A stretch of DNA of 64,000 bases from Methanobacteriota archaeon (GCA_002716085.1 PAYZ01000019.1:11649-75648), one strand, 5' to 3'; positions 5,852 to 16,753 are shown, counted from the first letter of the stretch. Notes: generated from the sequence alone by a model not told the origin. Numbers and translations: made by a program.

Positions 5852-6142
5852 ATGCCCGCACCAAAAAGAGCCAAGAGAGGCAAACACCGTTGGGTGGGTT
5901 TGGAAATCAACCGAGTCCTCTCAAGAAGTGATTTGGAGAGGACTCTTGGAGCATCGATAAAGAATTCAGATGCGCGAGTCTTCGATCTAAAGGACAATGG
6001 AAAAACAACGCGTGCAATACTGAAAGTACCGCTTTGCGACTATCTTGAAGTAAAAGAAAACGTGAATAAAATAGAAGAAATTTCTACAATCACTAGCTCT
6101 GGGAAAATTAGGCTTGTCAGGGATAGAATTTACAACAATTAA
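5852..6142 (+). CDS. probable RNase P protein component 2 (Pop5/Rpp14-like)
   Basis: 96-aa basic ORF. 'KRAKRGKHRWVGLEI' resembles the archaeal Pop5 'KKRYIAFEI' entry, and the C-terminal 'SSGKIRLVRDRI' resembles Pop5 'SGTIKRLKRK'. This rests on resemblance from memory only. Confidence 0.5.
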   Translation: MPAPKRAKRGKHRWVGLEINRVLSRSDLERTLGASIKNSDARVFDLKDNGKTTRAILKVPLCDYLEVKENVNKIEEISTITSSGKIRLVRDRIYNN

Positions 6143-7515
6143 TCAATGAGCCATTGGACCCCATCTAGGTCTCCAATTGAAACAACCCCTTCGGAACCTA
6201 TCGCTTCGAGCTCACCAACATTGTTTATTCCAATAGGTCGCATTATTTCCCCCCCAAATGAAACCTCAACTCCTCTTGAGAGAAGAGACGAAAGCGCACT
6301 CCAAGAAATTCCTAACAAATACTCTTCCGAGGGAACTCCCAACAGTCTACTTTCTTCGTACAAAGATGATATGGCACAATCGATCTCACTGAAAACTTCT
6401 TCAGCCACTTTATTCCCAAGAGTATTTATCCATCCAGAACCCTCTACTTCGTCTTTTTTGAAGTCGAATTTGTTTATTCCCACACCTACTCTGATTTTTT
6501 CGGAGTCGGATGATTCCAAGAGAATCCCCCCCATCTTCTTCCAATCATCATCAACTATGTCATTTGGCCATTTCATCCTAGCTCCTATGATTCTCGAAAC
6601 TACGGCTCCAATACTAGTTTGAAGCAACCCCGGAGAAACTTGCTCAATTATCTCTCCTTCGAGATTCCAAGTGGCAAAAACTGACTCTGGCTGACCCATC
6701 CATTCTGAACCCCTCCTGCCTCTTCCATTTGTCTGCTCATAGGCGAATACTCGTTGCCAACCACCGTCTGAAATCTTAGCTGCCTCTTCCATTGTTGAAT
6801 TGCAAGAATCCAACACTACTTCTTTGACTCCGGATCCTGTTTTCCAAAAGCCAAAGACCTCAATCTTTTCATCCCCCATCCTCAAAAAATTCAAAGATCT
6901 GGATGACCAACCTCTAGAATTCCAATCTGAAACTTTGCTTTCACCTTCGGGATCAGTCCTTAACACAAGAATCACAACCAGCTTCTCCAAATTCTGCGGC
7001 TCAAAATCTGATAAATGCCTCAATAGTTCTCCGCCCCAGCCCCCATTGGGGATATCCGACATGGAAGCCTCTTCTATCTCGGAAATACCTTCAGGAATTT
7101 CACCCATCCTATCCAGGTAGGGTAGATTCCATACCAACAAATCAGTACATTCTGGAATAATGGCCCCCTCCCCAATACCAGATTCGAACACCTCCACCTT
7201 TTCTGAAAGGCCGTAAGACTCTAAGTTCCCACGTGCCGCAGCTACGGCTACAGGGTTTACATCACACGCAGAAACTTCCCATCCAAGATTGCTGAGAACA
7301 ATTGAGACCATTCCAGAACCGCATCCAATTTCAAAGGCTTTACCGGTCTTTTCCTTCAACTGGGCGATTGTCGAGCAAAGCAACTCTGTGTCCTCTCTAG
7401 GAGGATACACCGAATGCGGCACAATCACTTCCCAATTTCCCAAACCCTCTATATCGAGGCATACTTTGTGCATGCAACGTACAAAAAAAACACCGTCTAA
7501 GTTTTTCCGCTGCAT
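6139..7515 (-). CDS. fusion protein: HemK/Mtq2-like SAM methyltransferase + biotin--protein ligase (BirA catalytic) domain
   Basis: 458-aa ORF. The N-terminal half has 'VYPPREDTELL', SAM motif I 'EIGCGSGMVSI' and an NPPY-variant 'WNLPYL'. The C-terminal half has the BPL signature 'QTNGRGRRGSEW' and 'KWPNDIV...GGILLES'. Confidence 0.75.
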   Translation of the reverse strand: MQRKNLDGVFFVRCMHKVCLDIEGLGNWEVIVPHSVYPPREDTELLCSTIAQLKEKTGKAFEIGCGSGMVSIVLSNLGWEVSACDVNPVAVAAARGNLESYGLSEKVEVFESGIGEGAIIPECTDLLVWNLPYLDRMGEIPEGISEIEEASMSDIPNGGWGGELLRHLSDFEPQNLEKLVVILVLRTDPEGESKVSDWNSRGWSSRSLNFLRMGDEKIEVFGFWKTGSGVKEVVLDSCNSTMEEAAKISDGGWQRVFAYEQTNGRGRRGSEWMGQPESVFATWNLEGEIIEQVSPGLLQTSIGAVVSRIIGARMKWPNDIVDDDWKKMGGILLESSDSEKIRVGVGINKFDFKKDEVEGSGWINTLGNKVAEEVFSEIDCAISSLYEESRLLGVPSEEYLLGISWSALSSLLSRGVEVSFGGEIMRPIGINNVGELEAIGSEGVVSIGDLDGVQWLID

Positions 7516-7662: not shown

Positions 7663-7736
7663 GGGCCTGTAGCTTAGTCAGGTAGAGCGCCGGGCTTTTA
7701 ACCCGGTGGCCGGGGGTTCGAATCCCCTCAGGCCCG
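7663..7736 (+). tRNA. tRNA-Lys (anticodon UUU)
   Basis: 74-nt cloverleaf folded by hand. Acceptor GGGCCTG/CAGGCCC, anticodon arm CCGGG-CTTTTAA-CCCGG, T-arm GGGGG-TTCGAAT-CCCCT, discriminator G. No encoded CCA. Confidence 0.9.
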
Positions 7737-7760
7737 CCTGGCAGCTTACTAGGCTCTCGC

Positions 7761-7784: not shown

Positions 7785-8372
7785 ATGGCAGTCAAAAGCT
7801 CCACAAAAAAAAGGCTAATTGAGTTAGGAATCCAAGAGGATCACGCCCATAAGCTCGCTGATGATGCCAATCTGGACACGATCAAAAGAATGTCTCGAGA
7901 ACAGGTGGCAAAAAAGGTCGGAGTAGAAGAAAACTCTTCCGAACTCGAGCACATCATGGGGGTAATTTCTGAGCATGTCGGATCAAGAAAGCGGAGCAAG
8001 AGTAACAGGATTACTATCTCTAGGAAGGCTCTCTTGGATGAAGACATCCCCACCGGAGACTACAGATTCAATGTCCTAAATCATGTTCTTGTGCCTCATC
8101 ACGAACTAGTCCCCATCGATTCCGAAGCAGAGATACTTGAGCCATGGGCCTTAACCACTGACGATGCATTCGGCACGGGAAGGCTGGCCAAGGAACTCCT
8201 TCCCAAAATTCTCATCACTGACCCTGCTATCCAGGCTATCAAAGAAATGGAGGAATTAGAAAACGACGAGCTCCCAGCGGGGTGGCTTGCAAACAGGGTC
8301 GTCAAAGTAGTTCGATATAGCAGATCTGCGGGAAGCTCCGAGGCATATCGGCTTATTGTAGAAACTACGTAA
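7785..8372 (+). CDS. rpoH: RNA polymerase subunit H (Rpb5-like) with ~90-aa N-terminal extension
   Basis: 195-aa ORF. The C-terminal about 100 aa is 'HVLVPHHELVP...EAEILEPW....LPKILITDPAIQAI...VVKVVRYSRSAGSSEAYRLIV'. It sits upstream of rpoB as in the conserved archaeal cluster. Confidence 0.9.
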   Translation: MAVKSSTKKRLIELGIQEDHAHKLADDANLDTIKRMSREQVAKKVGVEENSSELEHIMGVISEHVGSRKRSKSNRITISRKALLDEDIPTGDYRFNVLNHVLVPHHELVPIDSEAEILEPWALTTDDAFGTGRLAKELLPKILITDPAIQAIKEMEELENDELPAGWLANRVVKVVRYSRSAGSSEAYRLIVETT

Positions 8373-8385
8373 TATAGAAGGTGGA

Positions 8386-11300
8386 ATGATGAAAGAAATA
8401 GTTGAAAGTTACTTCAAGCAAAGGAGTCTGGTAAATCATCAGCTGGCTTCTTACAACGACTGTATTCCTGTTGGGGACGGAAAAGAGAGCAGAATGGAAA
8501 GAATCGTCAGAAACATCCGGATAGGCAGCGAAGAACAGGTTGAAGATGAGGAAGGCGGACTAGTAAAATTGGATCTCTTGGACAAGGAAATCATCGTTCG
8601 AATGAAGAATCTCAGACTGGGCCAGCCCACAATAAAGGAAGCAAATGGGGCTGAACACCCAGCGACACCCATGGAGTGTAGGATAAGGAAACTAACTTAT
8701 TTCTCCCCAGTTTACCTAGATTTCAAGATTTTTCGAGATGATCTCCCTCCTTCCCCGGGTTCTGAGATGGGCTTCCAAGAGGAACATAGCGTCCACATTG
8801 GAAACCTCCCAATTATGGTGAGGTCAGCGCGATGCAATCTTCACAGCAACCACATAGATGAGAATAGACGGCTCTCCCCTGATGTATCAGGGGAAGATTC
8901 TGAGAGGTATAAACATCAACTTAGAAAATCAGGAGAAGATCCCCTTGATCCTGGAGGATACTTCATAATTAACGGAACCGAGAGAGTTCTAATTTCTATG
9001 GAAGACCTAGCTCCAAACAGAGTCACGGTGGAGAAGAACAAGAAGTACGCTCACGAGACTCAAGTTGCCAAGATTTTCTCCCAGAAAGACGGGGTGAGGA
9101 AACCCCTCAATGTCGAGAAGAGGAGGGATGGGATGCTGATGGTGAAGATTCCAAGTGCAGGGACTACTCCTGTGCCTCTTGTCCTTCTGATGAGGGCACT
9201 TGGCGTGGAGAACGATAGGGAGATCTTCGCATCAATAGCCGGACCTCCAGAGGCAATGAAATTCACAGTTGCTAACCTTAACGACCTTCGTGATAATGAA
9301 GAGTATGGGGTTGATACTTCTGAGGAAGCTATGGCTTGGTTGGAGAAGAAGTTCGCCGCAGGGCAACAGAAGGAATACCGAGAGTCTAGGATACAAAATC
9401 TGCTGGATAACGAGCTCCTCCCTCATCTCGGGTCATCAATCGAAAATCGGGAAAAGAAGGCCATTTTCCTAGGTCGAATAGCTAGACAGGTTCTGGAGAT
9501 GGCGATTAAGGACAAGGACCCGAATGACAAGGACCATTACGCAAACAAGAGGGTCAGGCTAGCAGGAGACCTCGTCGAGGACCTATTCAGAGTAAGCCTA
9601 CAACAACTCGCAAGGGATCTAAAGTACCAGCTTGAGAGGCACCACAACCGTAAGAGGGAACTAAGAATCTCTTCATGTCTACGCCCCGATGTCCTAACTA
9701 CCAAGATTATGCACGCACTAGCCACTGGAAACTGGGTCGGAGGAAGGTCTGGAGTAAGCCAGCTTCTTGACAGAACAACATATCTTTCTGCTCTCTCTCA
9801 CCTTAGAAGAGTAACTAGTCCCTTAGTAAGAAGCCAACCACACTTCGAGGCAAGAGACCTACATCCGACACAATGGGGTAGACTTTGTCCGAACGAAACC
9901 CCCGAGGGCCAGAACTGCGGCCTAGTCAAGAACGGCGCGCAAATGATAGACATATCCGAGGAGGTCTCTGAGAATGACGTGAAGGAACTTCTGAGAGAAG
10001 CTGGGGTGGACGACGATCCCGATGGATGGGCAGACGGATCTAGAATCCACGTCAACGGAGATATTTTCGGTTTACACAAAAGGCCTCACAAGCTTGTCAG
10101 TCAGTTCAAGAGTAGGAGGCGCTCAGGAAGAATAAGGCCAGAGGTAAGTATCAGGCACGACCTAGAAAATAGGGACGTATTCATCAATACAGATAGAGGA
10201 AGAATGCTACGTCCTCTTCTGATTATAGATCATGGAAGTCTACAGATAACTAAGATGCATCTAGAGGGACTAAATTCGGGTGAGATTTCGTTCGCTGATT
10301 TGGTCTCTGGGGGAGTAGTTGAGTGGGTCGATGCTGAAGAAGAAGAAGACCTTCTTATTGCCCCTCGGCCGTTCGATCTTCCATCTATTTCTCCGAAATA
10401 CAAGCGCCCGATCAACCCATCAATGGTCGAATGGTCGAACTTGGGAGAACATGGAATATCTAACGCGGATTTAGTCGCCAAAGTGAAGATGCCGAATGGA
10501 GAAACCAAAACCGAGAAATTCAAAGTTCCATTAAATTACTTCCAGGACAACATTGACTCCCTAAAGAGGAAGGAGAAGAAAGACAAAACAGTACTAATCT
10601 ACACTCACGTTGAGATAGATCCCCAGCTTATCCTTGGGGTATGCGCATCATTGGTACCCTATCCGGAGCATAACTCCACACCAAGAGTGACCGGGGGAAC
10701 AGCAATGGTCAAGCAAAGCCTCGGCGTTGCGAGTGCAAACTTTAGACTGAGGCCGGACACTAGGGCCCATGTTATGCACTATCCTCAGCGATCAATTGTG
10801 GGCACTAGGGCCATGCAATCTACTAACTTCGATCAGAGGCCGGGAGGGCAGAACTTCGTAGTGGCTATAGTGAGCCATCATGGATACAATATGCAGGATG
10901 CTGTAATCATGAACCGAGCATCCGTTGAGAGGGCACTTGGACGATCTGCTTTCATTAGGACCTATAATGCAGAGAATAAGAGATTCCCAGGAGGCCAGGA
11001 GGAAAGGATCGAGGTTCCCGGTACCGGTTTGGATGAGATCAAAGGATTGAAGTCATGGGATTCATATTCTCACTTAGAAAGAGACGGACTACCAGTTCCC
11101 GAAGTTGAACTAACTAGCGAAGAGGGAGGTAGGTCCATCCTCGTTGGAAAGACTAGCCCGCCTCGATTCTTGGAAGAAGCTCATGGGGCATTCCTCCAAG
11201 CTCAGGAGAGAAGGGAATCTTCCATGCTCGTTCGCCATGGGGAGAAGGGCTGGGTAGACAACGTGTTCGTAACAGAATCTCTAGACTCAGGGAGGCTGGT

Positions 11301-12081
11301 TAGGATCACCCTGAGGACAAATAAGATTCCCGAGCTTGGGGACAAGTTCGCTAGTAGGCATGGGCAGAAGGGAATCATCGGTAGACTCGTGGAACAGGAG
11401 GATATGCCATTCACAGAGGACGGAGTAATTCCCGACCTACTAATCAATCCCCACGCAATACCTTCCAGAATGACCGTCGCTCACGTCCTCGAGATGATTG
11501 GTGGAAAGGTAGGCTCTATGGATGGTAGGAGGATAGATGGGACTGCATTCACGGGGGAGAAGGAAGAATCCCTCAGATCTGGACTATTGAGGAACGGACT
11601 AAGGCACACTGGAAGAGAGTCGATGATTAATGGAGAGACTGGCGACACGTTCCCTGTAGATACATTCGTAGGAGTGATTTACTATCAGAGATTACATCAC
11701 CTAGTAAGTAGCAAGCTTCACGCAAGAAGCAGAGGCAGGGTCCAGATTCTGACCAGACAACCCACTGAGGGAAGGGCTAGGCAGGGTGGTCTAAGGTTCG
11801 GCGAGATGGAGAGGGATTGCCTGATCTCCCATGGAGCTTCAATGGTGATCAAGGACAGGTTGCTCGATGAGTCTGACGGTTGGAACTTGATGGTCTGTAA
11901 TACTCCAAGATGCGGCCATATCGCCTACTATGACTGGAAGAGACGGACAAGCGTCTGCCCGGTCTGCGGCGATAGGGCTGACGTACATTCCGTCCAGACG
12001 TCGTATGCGTTCAAACTACTATTGGACGAGATGAAGAGTCTGGGTGTAGCAATGAGATTAGAACTGGAGGATAGAAGATGA
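8386..12081 (+). CDS. rpoB: RNA polymerase subunit B (unsplit)
   Basis: 1231-aa ORF. Contains 'PYPEHNSTPR', 'GDKFASRHGQKG', 'LINPHAIPSRMTV', 'GGLRFGEMERDC', and the C-terminal Zn ribbon 'CNTPRCGH...CPVCG'. Confidence 0.97.
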   Translation: MMKEIVESYFKQRSLVNHQLASYNDCIPVGDGKESRMERIVRNIRIGSEEQVEDEEGGLVKLDLLDKEIIVRMKNLRLGQPTIKEANGAEHPATPMECRIRKLTYFSPVYLDFKIFRDDLPPSPGSEMGFQEEHSVHIGNLPIMVRSARCNLHSNHIDENRRLSPDVSGEDSERYKHQLRKSGEDPLDPGGYFIINGTERVLISMEDLAPNRVTVEKNKKYAHETQVAKIFSQKDGVRKPLNVEKRRDGMLMVKIPSAGTTPVPLVLLMRALGVENDREIFASIAGPPEAMKFTVANLNDLRDNEEYGVDTSEEAMAWLEKKFAAGQQKEYRESRIQNLLDNELLPHLGSSIENREKKAIFLGRIARQVLEMAIKDKDPNDKDHYANKRVRLAGDLVEDLFRVSLQQLARDLKYQLERHHNRKRELRISSCLRPDVLTTKIMHALATGNWVGGRSGVSQLLDRTTYLSALSHLRRVTSPLVRSQPHFEARDLHPTQWGRLCPNETPEGQNCGLVKNGAQMIDISEEVSENDVKELLREAGVDDDPDGWADGSRIHVNGDIFGLHKRPHKLVSQFKSRRRSGRIRPEVSIRHDLENRDVFINTDRGRMLRPLLIIDHGSLQITKMHLEGLNSGEISFADLVSGGVVEWVDAEEEEDLLIAPRPFDLPSISPKYKRPINPSMVEWSNLGEHGISNADLVAKVKMPNGETKTEKFKVPLNYFQDNIDSLKRKEKKDKTVLIYTHVEIDPQLILGVCASLVPYPEHNSTPRVTGGTAMVKQSLGVASANFRLRPDTRAHVMHYPQRSIVGTRAMQSTNFDQRPGGQNFVVAIVSHHGYNMQDAVIMNRASVERALGRSAFIRTYNAENKRFPGGQEERIEVPGTGLDEIKGLKSWDSYSHLERDGLPVPEVELTSEEGGRSILVGKTSPPRFLEEAHGAFLQAQERRESSMLVRHGEKGWVDNVFVTESLDSGRLVRITLRTNKIPELGDKFASRHGQKGIIGRLVEQEDMPFTEDGVIPDLLINPHAIPSRMTVAHVLEMIGGKVGSMDGRRIDGTAFTGEKEESLRSGLLRNGLRHTGRESMINGETGDTFPVDTFVGVIYYQRLHHLVSSKLHARSRGRVQILTRQPTEGRARQGGLRFGEMERDCLISHGASMVIKDRLLDESDGWNLMVCNTPRCGHIAYYDWKRRTSVCPVCGDRADVHSVQTSYAFKLLLDEMKSLGVAMRLELEDRR

Positions 12082-15000
12082 GTAATCGAGACGCAGCAAA
12101 GATCCCTAAGAGAATCGACTCAATACGATTCACTCTAATGGATCCAAATGAAATCCGAAAGATGTCTTCCGTTGAAGTGAAGACTGCGGATACATACAAG
12201 GATGACGGTCATGCATTCAAGCAGGGATTGATGGATCCAAAGATGGGCGTGATAGACCCAGGAATCAGGTGCGAGACTTGTGGAAACAAACATGAAGAGT
12301 GCCCAAGCCACTTCGGACACATCGCGCTTGAACTTCCCGTGATGCATATCGGTTTCACAGGACTAATCAAGACATGCCTTAAGACAACATGCAACACTTG
12401 TAGCAAGGCTCTGCTACTAGATGCACCAGAGACGCATCCAACAGACCCAGAGAAGTCGGAACAAGACTATTATCGAGACAAAGTAAATGACATAATCCTG
12501 AAGCATGGAGTTGGTGGAAGGGAGTTCAAGAAGATTATCAAGGACATCGAGAATATCTGTGCCGGTGCCAAGAGGGCAATTTGTATGCACTGCGGCGCCG
12601 AGCAAGGAAAGATTATCTTAGACAAACCTACAACCTTCAAGGAGAAGAAAGCAGACAAGGGAGAGCACAAGCTGAATGCTCGAGACATCCGAGAGTGGCT
12701 CGAAAAGATTCCAGATGAGCACCTAATTTTCGTCGGGATGGAGAAAGACGTTAGTCGACCCGAGTGGACGATCATGAAGGTACTTCCAGTTCCGCCAATT
12801 ACGGTAAGACCATCTATCACTCTTGAGAGTGGAGATAGGTCCGAGGACGACCTGACCCACAAGCTAGTGGATGTTCTGAGGATAAACCAGAGACTTAGGG
12901 AAAACAGAGACTCGGGAGCACCACAACTAATCGTCGAGGATCTCTGGGAGCTCCTCCAATACCACTGCACAACTTACTTTGATAATCAGACCAGCGGAAT
13001 TCCCCCAGCTAGGCACAGATCAGGAAGGCCACTGAAGACCCTCTCACAGAGGCTTAAGGGCAAGGAAGGAAGATTCAGAAGCAACCTCTCAGGAAAGAGG
13101 GTTAACTTCTGTGCTAGAACAGTAATAAGCCCCGATCCAAATCTAGGAATCAATGAAGTTGGAGTCCCGGTTAAGACTGCAAAGGAACTAACTGTGCCTA
13201 TTCGGGTTACGGGTAGAAACAGGGAGCAACTCAGACAGATGATCCTCAGAGGCCCAGATGTTCATCCCGGAGTAAACTACATCATCAGAGGCGATAGGTT
13301 TAGAGTAAGAATCACTGATAGAACGAAATACATATGGGCAGGATTTCGATGCTTGAATCCAGACTGCCATTCTGGTAGCGAAGAAGAGCCCTACTCGGGG
13401 TACCGTCCAGATCTGAATGAGGTCCTGCCTGCTCCTAATTTCCTACCTGGACTTGTAATTATGGAACAAATGAGGAGGGACCCAATCACGGATGAACTTG
13501 TTCCAGAATGGAATGTCGACCTCGCTTCAACACTTTCAAACCTCAGAGGTGAGAAATCAGATGGGAAACCCCTCAAAGAAGATGACCCTGATGCAATTAT
13601 TCACCACAGGTGGAAGTGGGAAGTAGACCATCCAGATGAGTACTTGCCCGAATATCTTGAGGTAAAGTGCCCCCATTGCGGAAGTCCCGAGGTAGAGGAT
13701 GAGCACGGGAACGTGTATCCTACTGAGACTGAAGATAGACTTAGCACATATGACAGGGATGGAAACCCTCGTCCAGGAGTCGTCGTTGAGAGGCACTTGA
13801 TCGACGGAGATGTTGCTATCTTCAATCGACAGCCATCACTTCACAGGATGTCGATGCTAGTACACGAGATTAGGGTGATGGAGGGAAAGACGTTCAGATT
13901 CAATCTAGCGGATTGTACTCCTTACAATGCTGATTTTGATGGAGATGAGATGAACCTCCACGTGATTCAGAGTGAAGAAGCTAGGGCCGAGGCAAGGATT
14001 CTGATGAGGGTCCAGGAACACATCATTTCACCCAGATACGGGGGAAGCGTAATTGGTGGAATTCACGACCACATTACTGGCGCATATCTGCTTACCCATG
14101 GTGAAGCGTTCCTACCAACTCATGCTGCCATGAATGTCTTGAGCTCTATTGGGTGGGATGGGGATTTACCTGACATGGTCGAGAGGAATGGACAGGAAGG
14201 ATTCCTTGGAAATGATCTCTTCAGCCTTCTAGTGTCTGGGGGCTTCAGTCTAAACTTCAAGAATAGAGCAGGCGAGGAAGTACTCGTTTCAGAGGGAGAT
14301 GTCTCAGGTTCCATTGACAAGAGAGGGATAGGGGCAGAGGATGGTCGACTTCTTGACGCAGTAGTTCAAACTCATGGGACCGACTTGGGCGCCGAATTCA
14401 TCAACAAGATGACCAAGATGACGATTGCAATTTGTACTGCAATGGGTTTCACTACGGGAATTGATGACGAAGACCTTCCTCCAGAGGCCAAAGTTGAGAT
14501 TGATAGAATAAATAGCGAGGCAAGCGAGAAGGTAGACTCTGAGTTAGTAAGGTTCGGAAAGGACGGCAGGAAGTACGATCCAAGGCCAGGAAGAACACCT
14601 TTAGAGACCCTTGAAGAAAATATCCTGACAATTCTGGACGAGGCCAAGGCTGAGACCGGAAAAGTGGCAAAGTCACTACTTGGGGACGATAACTCAGCAG
14701 TTCTAATGGCAACTTCTGGAGCGAGGGGTTCTATGGATAACCTCGCAATGATGGCCGGCTCAATAGGCCAACCAAAGGTTAGAGGCAAGAGGCTAGAGAG
14801 AGGTTACCAAGACAGAGTCCTATCACATTTCCCACGCAACGTTAAGGGTGCAAAGGAGAAAGGGTTCGTCTCTTCTTCATTCAAGAGTGGTTTGGAGCCT
14901 ACAGAGTTCTTCATGCTGTCAGTATCAGGAAGGGAGTCACTAGTCGATACCGCTGTCAGGACAAGCAAATCGGGTTACATGCAAAGGCGGCTAATCAATG

Positions 15001-15173
15001 CAATGGACGATCTAAAAGTCTCTAATGATAAAATGGCTTCAGTCAGGAACACGGCAAATCGAATCGTTCAGTTCGAGTACGGTGAAGACGGAACCGATCC
15101 AGCTAAGAGCAGGAAAGGAAGCCCATTCGATGTCGATCAGGTTCTAAATGACGCACTTGGGGGTGTAAACTGA
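12078..15173 (+). CDS. rpoA1: RNA polymerase subunit A'
   Basis: 1031-aa ORF with a 4-nt overlap with rpoB. Contains the Zn sites '[17 protein letters not shown]', '[10 protein letters not shown]' and the catalytic '[10 protein letters not shown]'. Confidence 0.97.
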
Positions 15174-16753
15174 TGGTCGTCAAGAGTGCAACAAAAAAGA
15201 AGCTCATGGACCTCGGAATCGAGGAGGAGTACGCACACAAGCTGGCAGACGATAGGAAATGGGATGACGTCAAGGGACTCTCGCCCGGTCAGATTGCGCA
15301 GATATGCGGAATAGACTCTGGAACATCCCAGAAAATTCACGAAGTGATGGCAACCTCTGCTAAGTCATCACGGGCATCCTCTTCCACTACAGAGAAGACG
15401 ATTGTAAGGAGGAGAACAGCGTCTAGATCCAGGAGGATAAAACGCTCCCTACCCCTTCAAGATTACAATTATGAGACGAAGAAATCGCAAATCATTAGGG
15501 ACATAGATAATGAAGATGAAATGTACATTCAACTTTCTGATGCAGCAGAAGATGCCGGTGCAAACATGACTCCTATGATGATTGACCAGTTAGTCAAGGG
15601 CCTCCAGAAGAGAGGGGAGAAGAAACTTACGAAACCGAAGGCAAAGAAAATAATTGACTCTGCGAGGGGATTTTACAAAGAGGCTAGGGCTGTCCCTCAT
15701 GAGGCAGTTGGAATCACAACTGCCCAATCAATAGGTGAACCTGGAACCCAGATGACTATGCGAACATTCCACTACGCTGGAGTAGCAACGGTCAATGTGA
15801 CTCAAGGACTCCCTCGAATAATCGAAATTGTGGATGCGAGGAAGGTCCCAAAGACTCCTACAATGATTATCTACATGGACGAAAAGAACTCGAAAGGAAA
15901 GCCACTAAGAACTAATGAGAAATTAGTACGGGACATTGCAGCTAGCATTGAGACCACAACCGCCATGGATATTGCAACAATCGACGTAGACGTTGCACAG
16001 AGAAATATTAGCCTTCAGCTGAACCTCAGCAATTTGAAGTTGAAGAAGATGACAGGGGTAGAAGTCAGAGACAAGCTTTCCCGTGCACTGAGGCTTTACA
16101 TCCAAGCCGATGACGAGGATCGTCCAAGATCCCTTAGAATTATCCCGGGCGTTTCAAAGGAAGAAGATTTGGCGAGCCTAGCATCCGATCCACCAACCTA
16201 CACGGCACTTCTGCAGCTAGAGGACAAAATAAAGAAACTCAGGCTAAAGGGTCTACCCGGAATTAGTAGGGCCACCGTCCAAGGGCCAGTATCGGAAACG
16301 GGGGAGTATTACATTTCCACTATCGGCTCTAATCTAGCTAAGGTAAGCCAGTTTGACGGAATAGATAGAGCGAGGACATACACCAACAACATCAACGAGA
16401 TTCACGACTACTTGGGAATTGAGGCAGCTAGGCAGGCAATCATAAACGAAATGTGGGATACTCTGGAGGGAGCAGGACTTGATGTCGATGTTAGGCATCT
16501 GATCATGGTCGCAGATGTAATGACTACAGGTGGAGAGGTAAGGGCGATAGGAAGGCACGGGGTTAGCGGAACAAAGCACTCAATTCTTGCAAGATCGGCT
16601 TTCGAAGTCACTGTTACACACTTGCTCAAGGCAGGCGTAATAGGGGAGAGGGACATGCTTTCAGGGGTAACCGAAAACATAATTGTTGGGCAACCAGTAG
16701 CTCTCGGAACAGGAAGCGTAGAGCTTTTCTACATCCCAGGCGAAATCAACTGA
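15173..16753 (+). CDS. rpoA2: RNA polymerase subunit A'' with ~125-aa N-terminal extension
   Basis: 526-aa ORF whose ATG overlaps the rpoA' stop. Contains '[27 protein letters not shown]' and '[23 protein letters not shown]'. Confidence 0.95.

Follow-up and report, generated by a model that had tools for sequence, protein, structure and literature searches.

Two RNA polymerase subunits of Marine Group II archaea carry a duplicated N-terminal module that is shared with proteins outside the polymerase

Introduction

Marine Group II (MGII) archaea are abundant in the ocean, and their transcription machinery is assumed to be of the standard euryarchaeal kind. In the 64,000-nucleotide stretch of DNA analyzed here (the window), which comes from a Marine Group II archaeon of the family Thalassarchaeaceae in the order Poseidoniales, a first-pass annotation made from the sequence alone drew attention to the gene for RNA polymerase subunit H, rpoH. 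Its product appeared to begin with a long additional segment recalling the start of a second subunit, RpoA''. The locus raises the question of whether this extension is real, what kind of domain it forms, how widely it occurs and what it might do on the polymerase. We found no account of the N-terminal extension in the literature searched.

Results

Both subunits consist of an ordinary polymerase part preceded by extra N-terminal sequence

As can be seen in Table 1, rpoH heads an rpoH-rpoB-rpoA'-rpoA'' operon, in an order that is kept in related loci, and the next gene in the window after rpoA'' is L30e-like. An ORF scan shows that the rpoH ATG at 7785 is the first start codon past the preceding in-frame stop, and it lies 46 nt 3' of the tRNA-Lys gene; the rpoA' stop and the rpoA'' start overlap in the sequence TGATG. 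Only residues 95-191 of RpoH match the RNA_pol_Rpb5_C family (PF01191), with 47.2 bits against a cutoff of 23.5. Since residue 97 pairs with residue 3 of the 78-aa subunit H of M. jannaschii (1hmj), RpoH has ~94 extra residues at its N terminus, in good agreement with the initial claim of about 90, and the selection pressures given below indicate that they are real and coding. Likewise, residue 111 of RpoA'' pairs with residue 5 of the 395-aa Sulfolobus Rpo1C, the solved chains of which are 391-397 aa long, and RpoA'' therefore has ~106 extra N-terminal residues. The polymerase parts of the two proteins are ordinary family members. While the extension of RpoH had been placed at 7785-8060, it runs on to about 8066, and the folded module ends much earlier, at about 7979, the remainder being linker.

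Table 1. Position and composition of the module-bearing genes and their neighbors in the window
Feature	Position	Strand	Evidence and remarks
tRNA-Lys(UUU) gene	7663..7738	+	ARAGORN; just 5' of rpoH, bounds the upstream ORF start
rpoH, 195 aa	7785-8372	+	ORF list
RpoH aa 1-10, MAVKSSTKKR, nearly invariant basic arm, net +4	7785..7814	+	Alignments, charge
RpoH aa 1-65, module of five helices, (HhH)2/SAM-like predicted fold, core net -6	7785..7979	+	AlphaFold2, Foldseek, BLASTP vs RpoA'', pN/pS
RpoH aa 66-94, predicted disordered linker: basic GSRKRSKSNRITISRK (net +7), then conserved LLDEDIPTGD	7980..8066	+	pLDDT, charge, conservation
RpoH aa 95-195 and stop, canonical Rpb5 C-terminal (assembly) domain	8067..8372	+	Pfam PF01191, alignment to 1hmj
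rpoB, 1231 aa, between the two module-bearing genes	8386..12081	+	ORF list; tblastn vs related loci
rpoA', 1031 aa; TGA stop overlaps the rpoA'' ATG	12078..15173	+	ORF list
rpoA'', 526 aa	15173-16753	+	ORF list
RpoA'' aa 1-60, paralogous module, arm +4, core -5	15173..15352	+	BLASTP, tblastn, alignments, charge
RpoA'' aa 61-110, basic linker rich in Ser, Arg and Lys (net +10 over aa 61-92)	15353..15502	+	Charge; alignment boundary, aa 111 = Rpo1C residue 5
RpoA'' aa 111-526 and stop, canonical Rpo1C (trigger loop, jaw)	15503..16753	+	Pfam PF04998; PDB matches 2y0s_C/2waq_C, E about 1e-86

Compared with subunit H of M. jannaschii, RpoH contains two small insertions within its Rpb5-C domain (RpoH residues ~122-168, window 8150-8290), and in RpoH of MGIIa further insertions at the same two places give a 216-aa protein. 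RpoA' contains an insertion of ~148 aa (residues ~419-566, window 13332-13776) relative to a solved Rpo1N (8cro_A, residues 400 to 409), situated a short way before the NADFDGD segment of the active site, about where the TFB-binding dock region lies, and its CxxxxC and CPHCG motifs suggest a zinc ribbon. Upstream of the tRNA-Lys gene, a minus-strand ORF of 458 aa (6139-7515) combines methyltransferase and biotin/lipoate protein ligase domains in an apparent fusion; in a divergent locus (L089) the two domains are encoded by adjacent genes, in an assembly that has frameshifts.

The extensions stem from an old and selected duplication

Residues 1-56 of RpoH and RpoA'' align without gaps by BLASTP, 27 of the 56 positions being identical and 42 positive (E = 5e-15), so that the paralogy proposed from the sequence alone is borne out. 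A looser alignment runs on through the basic linker, with 41% identity over 82 aa. According to tblastn, the window contains exactly two copies of the module, those of RpoH and RpoA''. At the DNA level the two are 59% identical, with the same third codon position in 20 of 56 codons, and comparison of the copies gives a pN of 0.32 and a pS of 0.74, which is saturated. Such divergence rules out both an assembly repeat and a recent duplication. Among rpoH orthologues (n = 67), pN/pS is 0.12 in the module, 0.14 in the linker and 0.18 in the Rpb5-C domain, and the extension is therefore constrained at least as much as the canonical part of the protein. Judging by these sequence comparisons, the N-terminal unit of RpoH and RpoA'' is an ancient duplication, fixed across the Poseidoniales and under strong purifying selection, much as the first-pass annotation had it.

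We can dismiss as virtually impossible that the finding is an artefact, in which a mis-called start codon makes protein of upstream non-coding DNA, or in which the repeat was produced by assembly or by recent duplication. Dozens of independent assemblies agree on both the start and the length of 195 aa, the ORF offers no alternative start codon upstream, and both the low pN/pS of the extension and the saturation of synonymous sites between the copies contradict it. We found nothing in its support, but database fragments with adapter-derived ends could mislead a casual search. Many database "proteins" matching the module (P0001, P0002, P0005 and P0014-P0016) are contig-end fragments ending in translated adapter (SLIHI, CLLYTSPSPRD...) or frameshifted long-read calls, and short module-only matches in public protein sets are therefore not stand-alone genes. 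A module existing as a gene of its own was considered because the module-alone search returned such truncated or frameshifted fragments; the search with full-length RpoH removed the idea.

Both copies are fixed in Marine Group II and the module is narrowly distributed

The full-length RpoH search returned 1011 relatives, and the best 120 of them share its N terminus and, with few exceptions, a length of 193-197 aa; their annotation says no more than subunit H of Thalassarchaeaceae or Poseidoniales. Among 80 loci from GTDB species representatives, all of them MGII metagenome-assembled genomes (MAGs), 57 are long enough to show both subunits, and both copies are present in every one of these, about 7.4 kb apart. 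The same holds for all 38 loci with enough upstream sequence in a set of 80 metagenome loci, which include RpoH forms of 205-216 aa. NCBI records assign the 216-aa form to Candidatus Poseidoniaceae (MGIIa), RpoH of the Poseidoniaceae being 205-216 aa long, and its module is intermediate in sequence between the RpoH type and the RpoA'' type. A divergent lineage of 60% GC, whose RpoB is 57-75% identical to that of the window across aligned segments, also has both copies. Since they occur in MGIIa as well as in MGIIb, the duplication predates the split of the two families.

An exhaustive HMMER search with a profile of the module against 1.84 billion representative sequences found only 204 proteins at E <= 1e-3, which makes this a narrowly distributed domain. 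All named relatives, and the polymerase-type matches that we inspected, come from Poseidoniales or from unclassified marine archaeal MAGs. From the absence of matches in the profile search alone, we infer that Marine Group III and other Thermoplasmatota probably do without the module.

Structure prediction gives the module an independent fold of five helices on a basic tether

An AlphaFold2 model of the module, built from a 25-sequence alignment, consists of five helices (residues 6-13, 18-26, 30-34, 38-45 and 52-65) with a mean pLDDT of 82. In the model of full-length RpoH a pLDDT of about 80 is retained by the module, against less than 50 for residues 66-99; for the Rpb5-C part it is 50-70, too poor to judge whether the module contacts the Rpb5-C domain. 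These predictions support an independent domain on a disordered basic tether for RpoH, the subunit whose linker the disorder prediction covers.

Compared with the PDB by Foldseek, the model gave query-normalised TM-scores of 0.72-0.74 with the (HhH)2 (tandem helix-hairpin-helix) domains of FANCM/FAAP24, one of which is in a complex with dsDNA, 0.6-0.7 with the N-domains of RadA/Rad51, 0.64 with ERCC1/XPF and 0.60 with UvrC. The SAM domains of SARM1, at 0.62-0.69, were the top match class (probability 0.9, E about 0.7). All E-values were 0.7 or higher, hence not significant, and SAM and (HhH)2 domains score equally well. E-values of this order are usual for a helical query of 60 residues, though they are no proof. 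A Foldseek search of the viral BFVD library yielded weak HTH/sigma-like matches alone, with TM-scores below 0.5.

Searches at the level of sequence did not place the module in a known family. Pfam scans of the isolated modules and of all 25 alignment members yielded scattered chance matches alone, with none to an HhH family even at E <= 10, and the module profile found nothing meaningful among PDB sequences (best E-value 1.4). Comparison by hhalign with Rad51/RadA N-domains gave a probability of 19% and an alignment out of register, in what is a weak test with a small comparison alignment. There was no Pfam match of the module to the bacterial alpha-CTD family (RNA_pol_A_CTD, PF03118), and a Pfam scan of full-length RpoH at E <= 1 returned PF01191 alone, with no match to RNA_pol_Rpb5_N.

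The most conserved residues of the module, largely polar, lie within its first ~31 positions (V3, K4, S5, T7, K8, K9, E18, A21, H22, D27 and D31). In the basic arm of RpoH, of which residues 1-3 have low pLDDT in the AlphaFold2 model, V3, K4, S5, T7, K8 and K9 are invariant or at least 90% conserved in the alignments. The layout of charge is the same family-wide, with an arm of +4, a helical core of -5 to -6 (mean -5.0 over 371 sequences) and linkers of +7 in RpoH and +10 in RpoA''. As for the hairpins, the conserved G-h-G expected in each HhH unit is not present: in the alignment, hairpin 1 reads L-G-[IV], with a single Gly followed by an invariant acidic residue (Glu), and the Gly of hairpin 2 is missing in most RpoA''-type and many RpoH-type sequences. 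To go by charge, the acidic core resembles protein-binding HhH derivatives more than DNA-binding ones.

The notion of a tandem HhH, Rad51-N-like module was thus only partly upheld. In its favor are the five-helix prediction and the presence of (HhH)2 and RadA/Rad51-N domains among the best structural matches; against it are the lack of any sequence or profile match, the degenerate G-h-G motifs, the E-values and the equal standing of SAM domains. While its predicted fold or its position recalls one or another of them, the module is not demonstrably a member of the HhH, SAM, alpha-CTD or Rpb5-jaw families. It is an undescribed lineage-specific domain that is absent from Pfam.

The module also occurs on non-polymerase proteins and on mobile-element-like contigs

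Of the 204 profile matches, we inspected the continuations of the best 150. In 23 these are RpoH- or RpoA''-like, whereas 54 have continuations of at least 80 aa that are unrelated to either subunit and that fall into 14 multi-member families and 11 singletons. Many carriers match profile positions 1-30 or 1-45 only. Most carry modules of the RpoA'' type, but those of P0319 and P0340 are RpoH-type. In one natural protein (P0306) two modules stand in tandem, and a 1292-aa ORFan (P0329) has one as well. A 193-aa protein (P0328, L081:314-895), known from one low-coverage 970-bp contig, has the module where a zinc ribbon and B-reader would otherwise stand, and one lone TFIIB cyclin repeat comes after it (25.9 bits; cutoff, 23.6). 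In another protein (P0351, L088:1012-3567, JGI 3300064000), 851 aa long, two C2H2 zinc fingers are followed by the module (residues 92-150) and then by an ATPase of the ABC/OLD type. In PADLOC the protein comes closest to NsnB, a defence protein (2e-38), and it is a candidate defence protein with a polymerase-type module.

The ORFan carriers occur in tightly packed runs of co-directional ORFans, with one module-headed protein per contig in five cases (L082, L084, L085, L086 and L090), and on these contigs the module alone resembles host DNA. One of them, of 10.9 kb (L090:1-10855, TARA_B100000686_G_scaffold354384_1), encodes a prim-pol-like protein (26.4 bits, just below the cutoff of 26.8), a complete TFB and an Hjc-related nuclease, a combination that points to a plasmid- or virus-like element. 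The ORFan contigs, this one included, appear to represent a Marine Group II plasmid or virus that has yet to be described. The module turned up neither in a scan of IMG/VR viral contigs nor in a tblastn search of the phage and archaeal virus records of GenBank; the contigs themselves are absent from both collections and could not be assigned to a known virus, and PHROGs returned no hallmark genes for the module-bearing ORFans and their neighbors. Between L082 (186-1163) and L086 (4519-5532), the module-bearing proteins are 42% identical and the products of the two downstream genes 85% and 76%, suggesting that the module-bearing protein of this family evolves fast. Taken as a group, the non-polymerase carriers (a TFB-cyclin protein, a defence-type ATPase and ORFans beside prim-pol-like, TFB and Hjc-like genes) are proteins whose expected target is DNA or the transcription apparatus.

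Discussion

The module can be counted among the accessory domains that particular lineages carry at the jaw side of their multisubunit polymerases, and what is unexpected about it is that it is shared with many non-polymerase proteins. The N-terminal jaw of eukaryotic Rpb5, which forms the lower jaw of Pol I, II and III, is likewise an extra domain N-terminal to Rpb5-C/RpoH that faces downstream DNA (PMC2675907). However, it is packed on the assembly domain, whereas the MGII module is predicted to stand on a long disordered basic linker and to fold into five short helices in a (HhH)2/SAM-like manner; the module also shows no Rpb5_N match in Pfam, is duplicated on RpoA'' and occurs outside the polymerase. 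Rpo13 of the Sulfolobales, too, is a small helical element specific to its lineage; its tails are flexible and basic, it lies by the N-terminal region of Rpo5 and beside downstream DNA, and contact with DNA has been proposed for it (PMC2675907, PMC13257274). It forms a subunit of its own around a helix-turn-helix core, however, whereas the MGII module is fused to two subunits and has another predicted fold and no sequence relationship to it.

The C-terminal domain of the bacterial alpha subunit, alpha-CTD, is a small HhH-containing helical domain that is present in two copies per enzyme on flexible linkers, where it contacts DNA and serves as a docking site for regulators. The MGII module is predicted to resemble it in being an independent domain on a flexible linker, with two module-bearing subunits per operon. 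The arrangement differs, since alpha-CTD is C-terminal on two identical alpha subunits while the MGII modules are N-terminal on two different jaw-side subunits and do not match PF03118. With the (HhH)2 domains of XPF/ERCC1, FANCM/FAAP24 and UvrC and with RadA/Rad51-N, the predicted model may share a five-helix topology of two helix-hairpin-helix units with a connecting helix (TM-scores of 0.6-0.74), but it departs from them in its lack of profile similarity, its degenerate hairpin glycines, its acidic core and Foldseek E-values that are not significant. SAM domains are also small five-helix bundles, portable on many unrelated proteins in a way that resembles the promiscuous distribution of the MGII module, but they are mostly eukaryotic and have no sequence similarity to it. 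They mediate protein-protein contacts, and the (HhH)2 domains of XPF-ERCC1 and FANCM-FAAP24 pair as heterodimers.

What might the two modules do on the polymerase? For the position of the RpoH and RpoA'' N termini relative to DNA we rely on published descriptions. Archaeal Rpo5, which lacks the Rpb5 jaw domain, leaves a positively charged groove beside downstream DNA that is filled by Rpo13 in Sulfolobus, and Rpo1C carries a jaw that binds downstream DNA (PMC2675907); subunit H is reported to lie close to downstream DNA in initiation complexes (PMC2847245). Because Rpo5 lies by downstream DNA, an N-terminal fusion to RpoH would put its domain at the lower jaw. Our tentative preference, held with somewhat less than even confidence, is for two tethered modules that would make contacts at the side of the enzyme where DNA enters, and whose conserved surface would double as a docking determinant. 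The canonical parts of RpoH and RpoA'' would both sit on the downstream-DNA side of the polymerase (its "jaw/shelf"), which would make the modules flexibly tethered contact elements there, with linkers of 30-45 residues that could, we infer, bridge distances around 100 Å. DNA would be held without sequence specificity by three elements, namely the basic arm, the first helix-hairpin-helix and the basic linker, so that the modules might fill the role of the eukaryotic Rpb5 jaw domain or of Rpo13 in the Sulfolobales, with a loose parallel to bacterial alpha-CTD. In addition, the first ~35 residues, whose surface is strictly conserved, would act as a determinant for docking or targeting that the carriers have in common, which would account for the reuse of this N-terminal piece by many unrelated proteins of the lineage and by mobile elements. 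Several observations speak against a DNA-binding role: there is no HhH profile match, SAM domains, which bind proteins, rank first among the structural matches, and the hairpin glycines are degenerate. Since the G-h-G hairpins are degenerate, the core is acidic and the module has no place in an HhH family, we consider DNA binding and the analogy with alpha-CTD, which had been proposed at the outset, to be at best plausible.

The chief alternative, although we incline against it, is that the module serves mainly for protein-protein docking or dimerization rather than for binding DNA. In that case the copies on RpoH and RpoA'' would pair together or with module-bearing accessory proteins, and host, defence and mobile-element proteins would either reach the polymerase through the module or all bind one common host partner. 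The structural matches fit this well, the best being oligomerizing SAM domains and obligate heterodimeric (HhH)2 domains, as do the acidic core and the degenerate hairpins. Moreover, polar positions 3-9, 18, 21-22, 27 and 31 are near-invariant in RpoH, RpoA'' and unrelated proteins, which suits a specific partner better than non-specific DNA. Also in keeping with docking are the reuse of the module by at least 14 unrelated multi-member families and 11 singletons, many of which keep only its first 30-45 residues, the tandem modules of P0306, and the low identity of the module-bearing L082/L086 proteins (42%, against 76-85% for their neighbors), as would be expected of a protein that interacts with the host. 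Reuse is explained equally well, however, by a shared function in DNA or chromatin targeting, and the flanking basic arm and linkers are hard to explain by docking alone. Because the module heads so many non-polymerase proteins, shared targeting or docking comes out about as likely as simple DNA binding.

A further reading, which strikes us as rather unlikely, makes the module a Poseidoniales-specific "polymerase tag", that is, a portable N-terminal docking domain that the host builds into two subunits of its RNA polymerase. Repeated capture, of the RpoH-type as well as the RpoA''-type version, would have brought it to mobile elements or viruses, to a defence ATPase and to a TFB-like factor; each of these would use it to dock on a site of the transcription machinery or chromatin that is common to all, or to compete for that site. 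It is more improbable still that the modules are static structural additions to the polymerase core, which would stabilize its assembly or offset changes such as the ~148-aa insertion in RpoA'. The acidic core of the module would be compatible with such a role, and the size of the RpoA' insertion with an enzyme remodeled as a whole, but a static patch has no need of long linkers, that of RpoH being predicted to be disordered, and the presence of the module on dozens of non-polymerase proteins would go unexplained unless these compete for the same groove.

Our analysis indicates that the MGII polymerase has two conserved tethered domains on its downstream-DNA side, in addition to a large insertion in RpoA'. 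The lower-jaw position may thus be filled in a way additional to the Rpb5 jaw and Rpo13, if the placement that we deduce is right, and this bears on how multisubunit polymerases gain DNA-handling and regulatory surfaces. The module defines a domain family that Pfam does not hold, and its presence on mobile-element, defence and TFB-like proteins provides a testable handle on virus-host conflict in an uncultured lineage. Should these proteins indeed have captured a portable docking domain of the polymerase, there would be a domain-level arms race centered on archaeal RNA polymerase.
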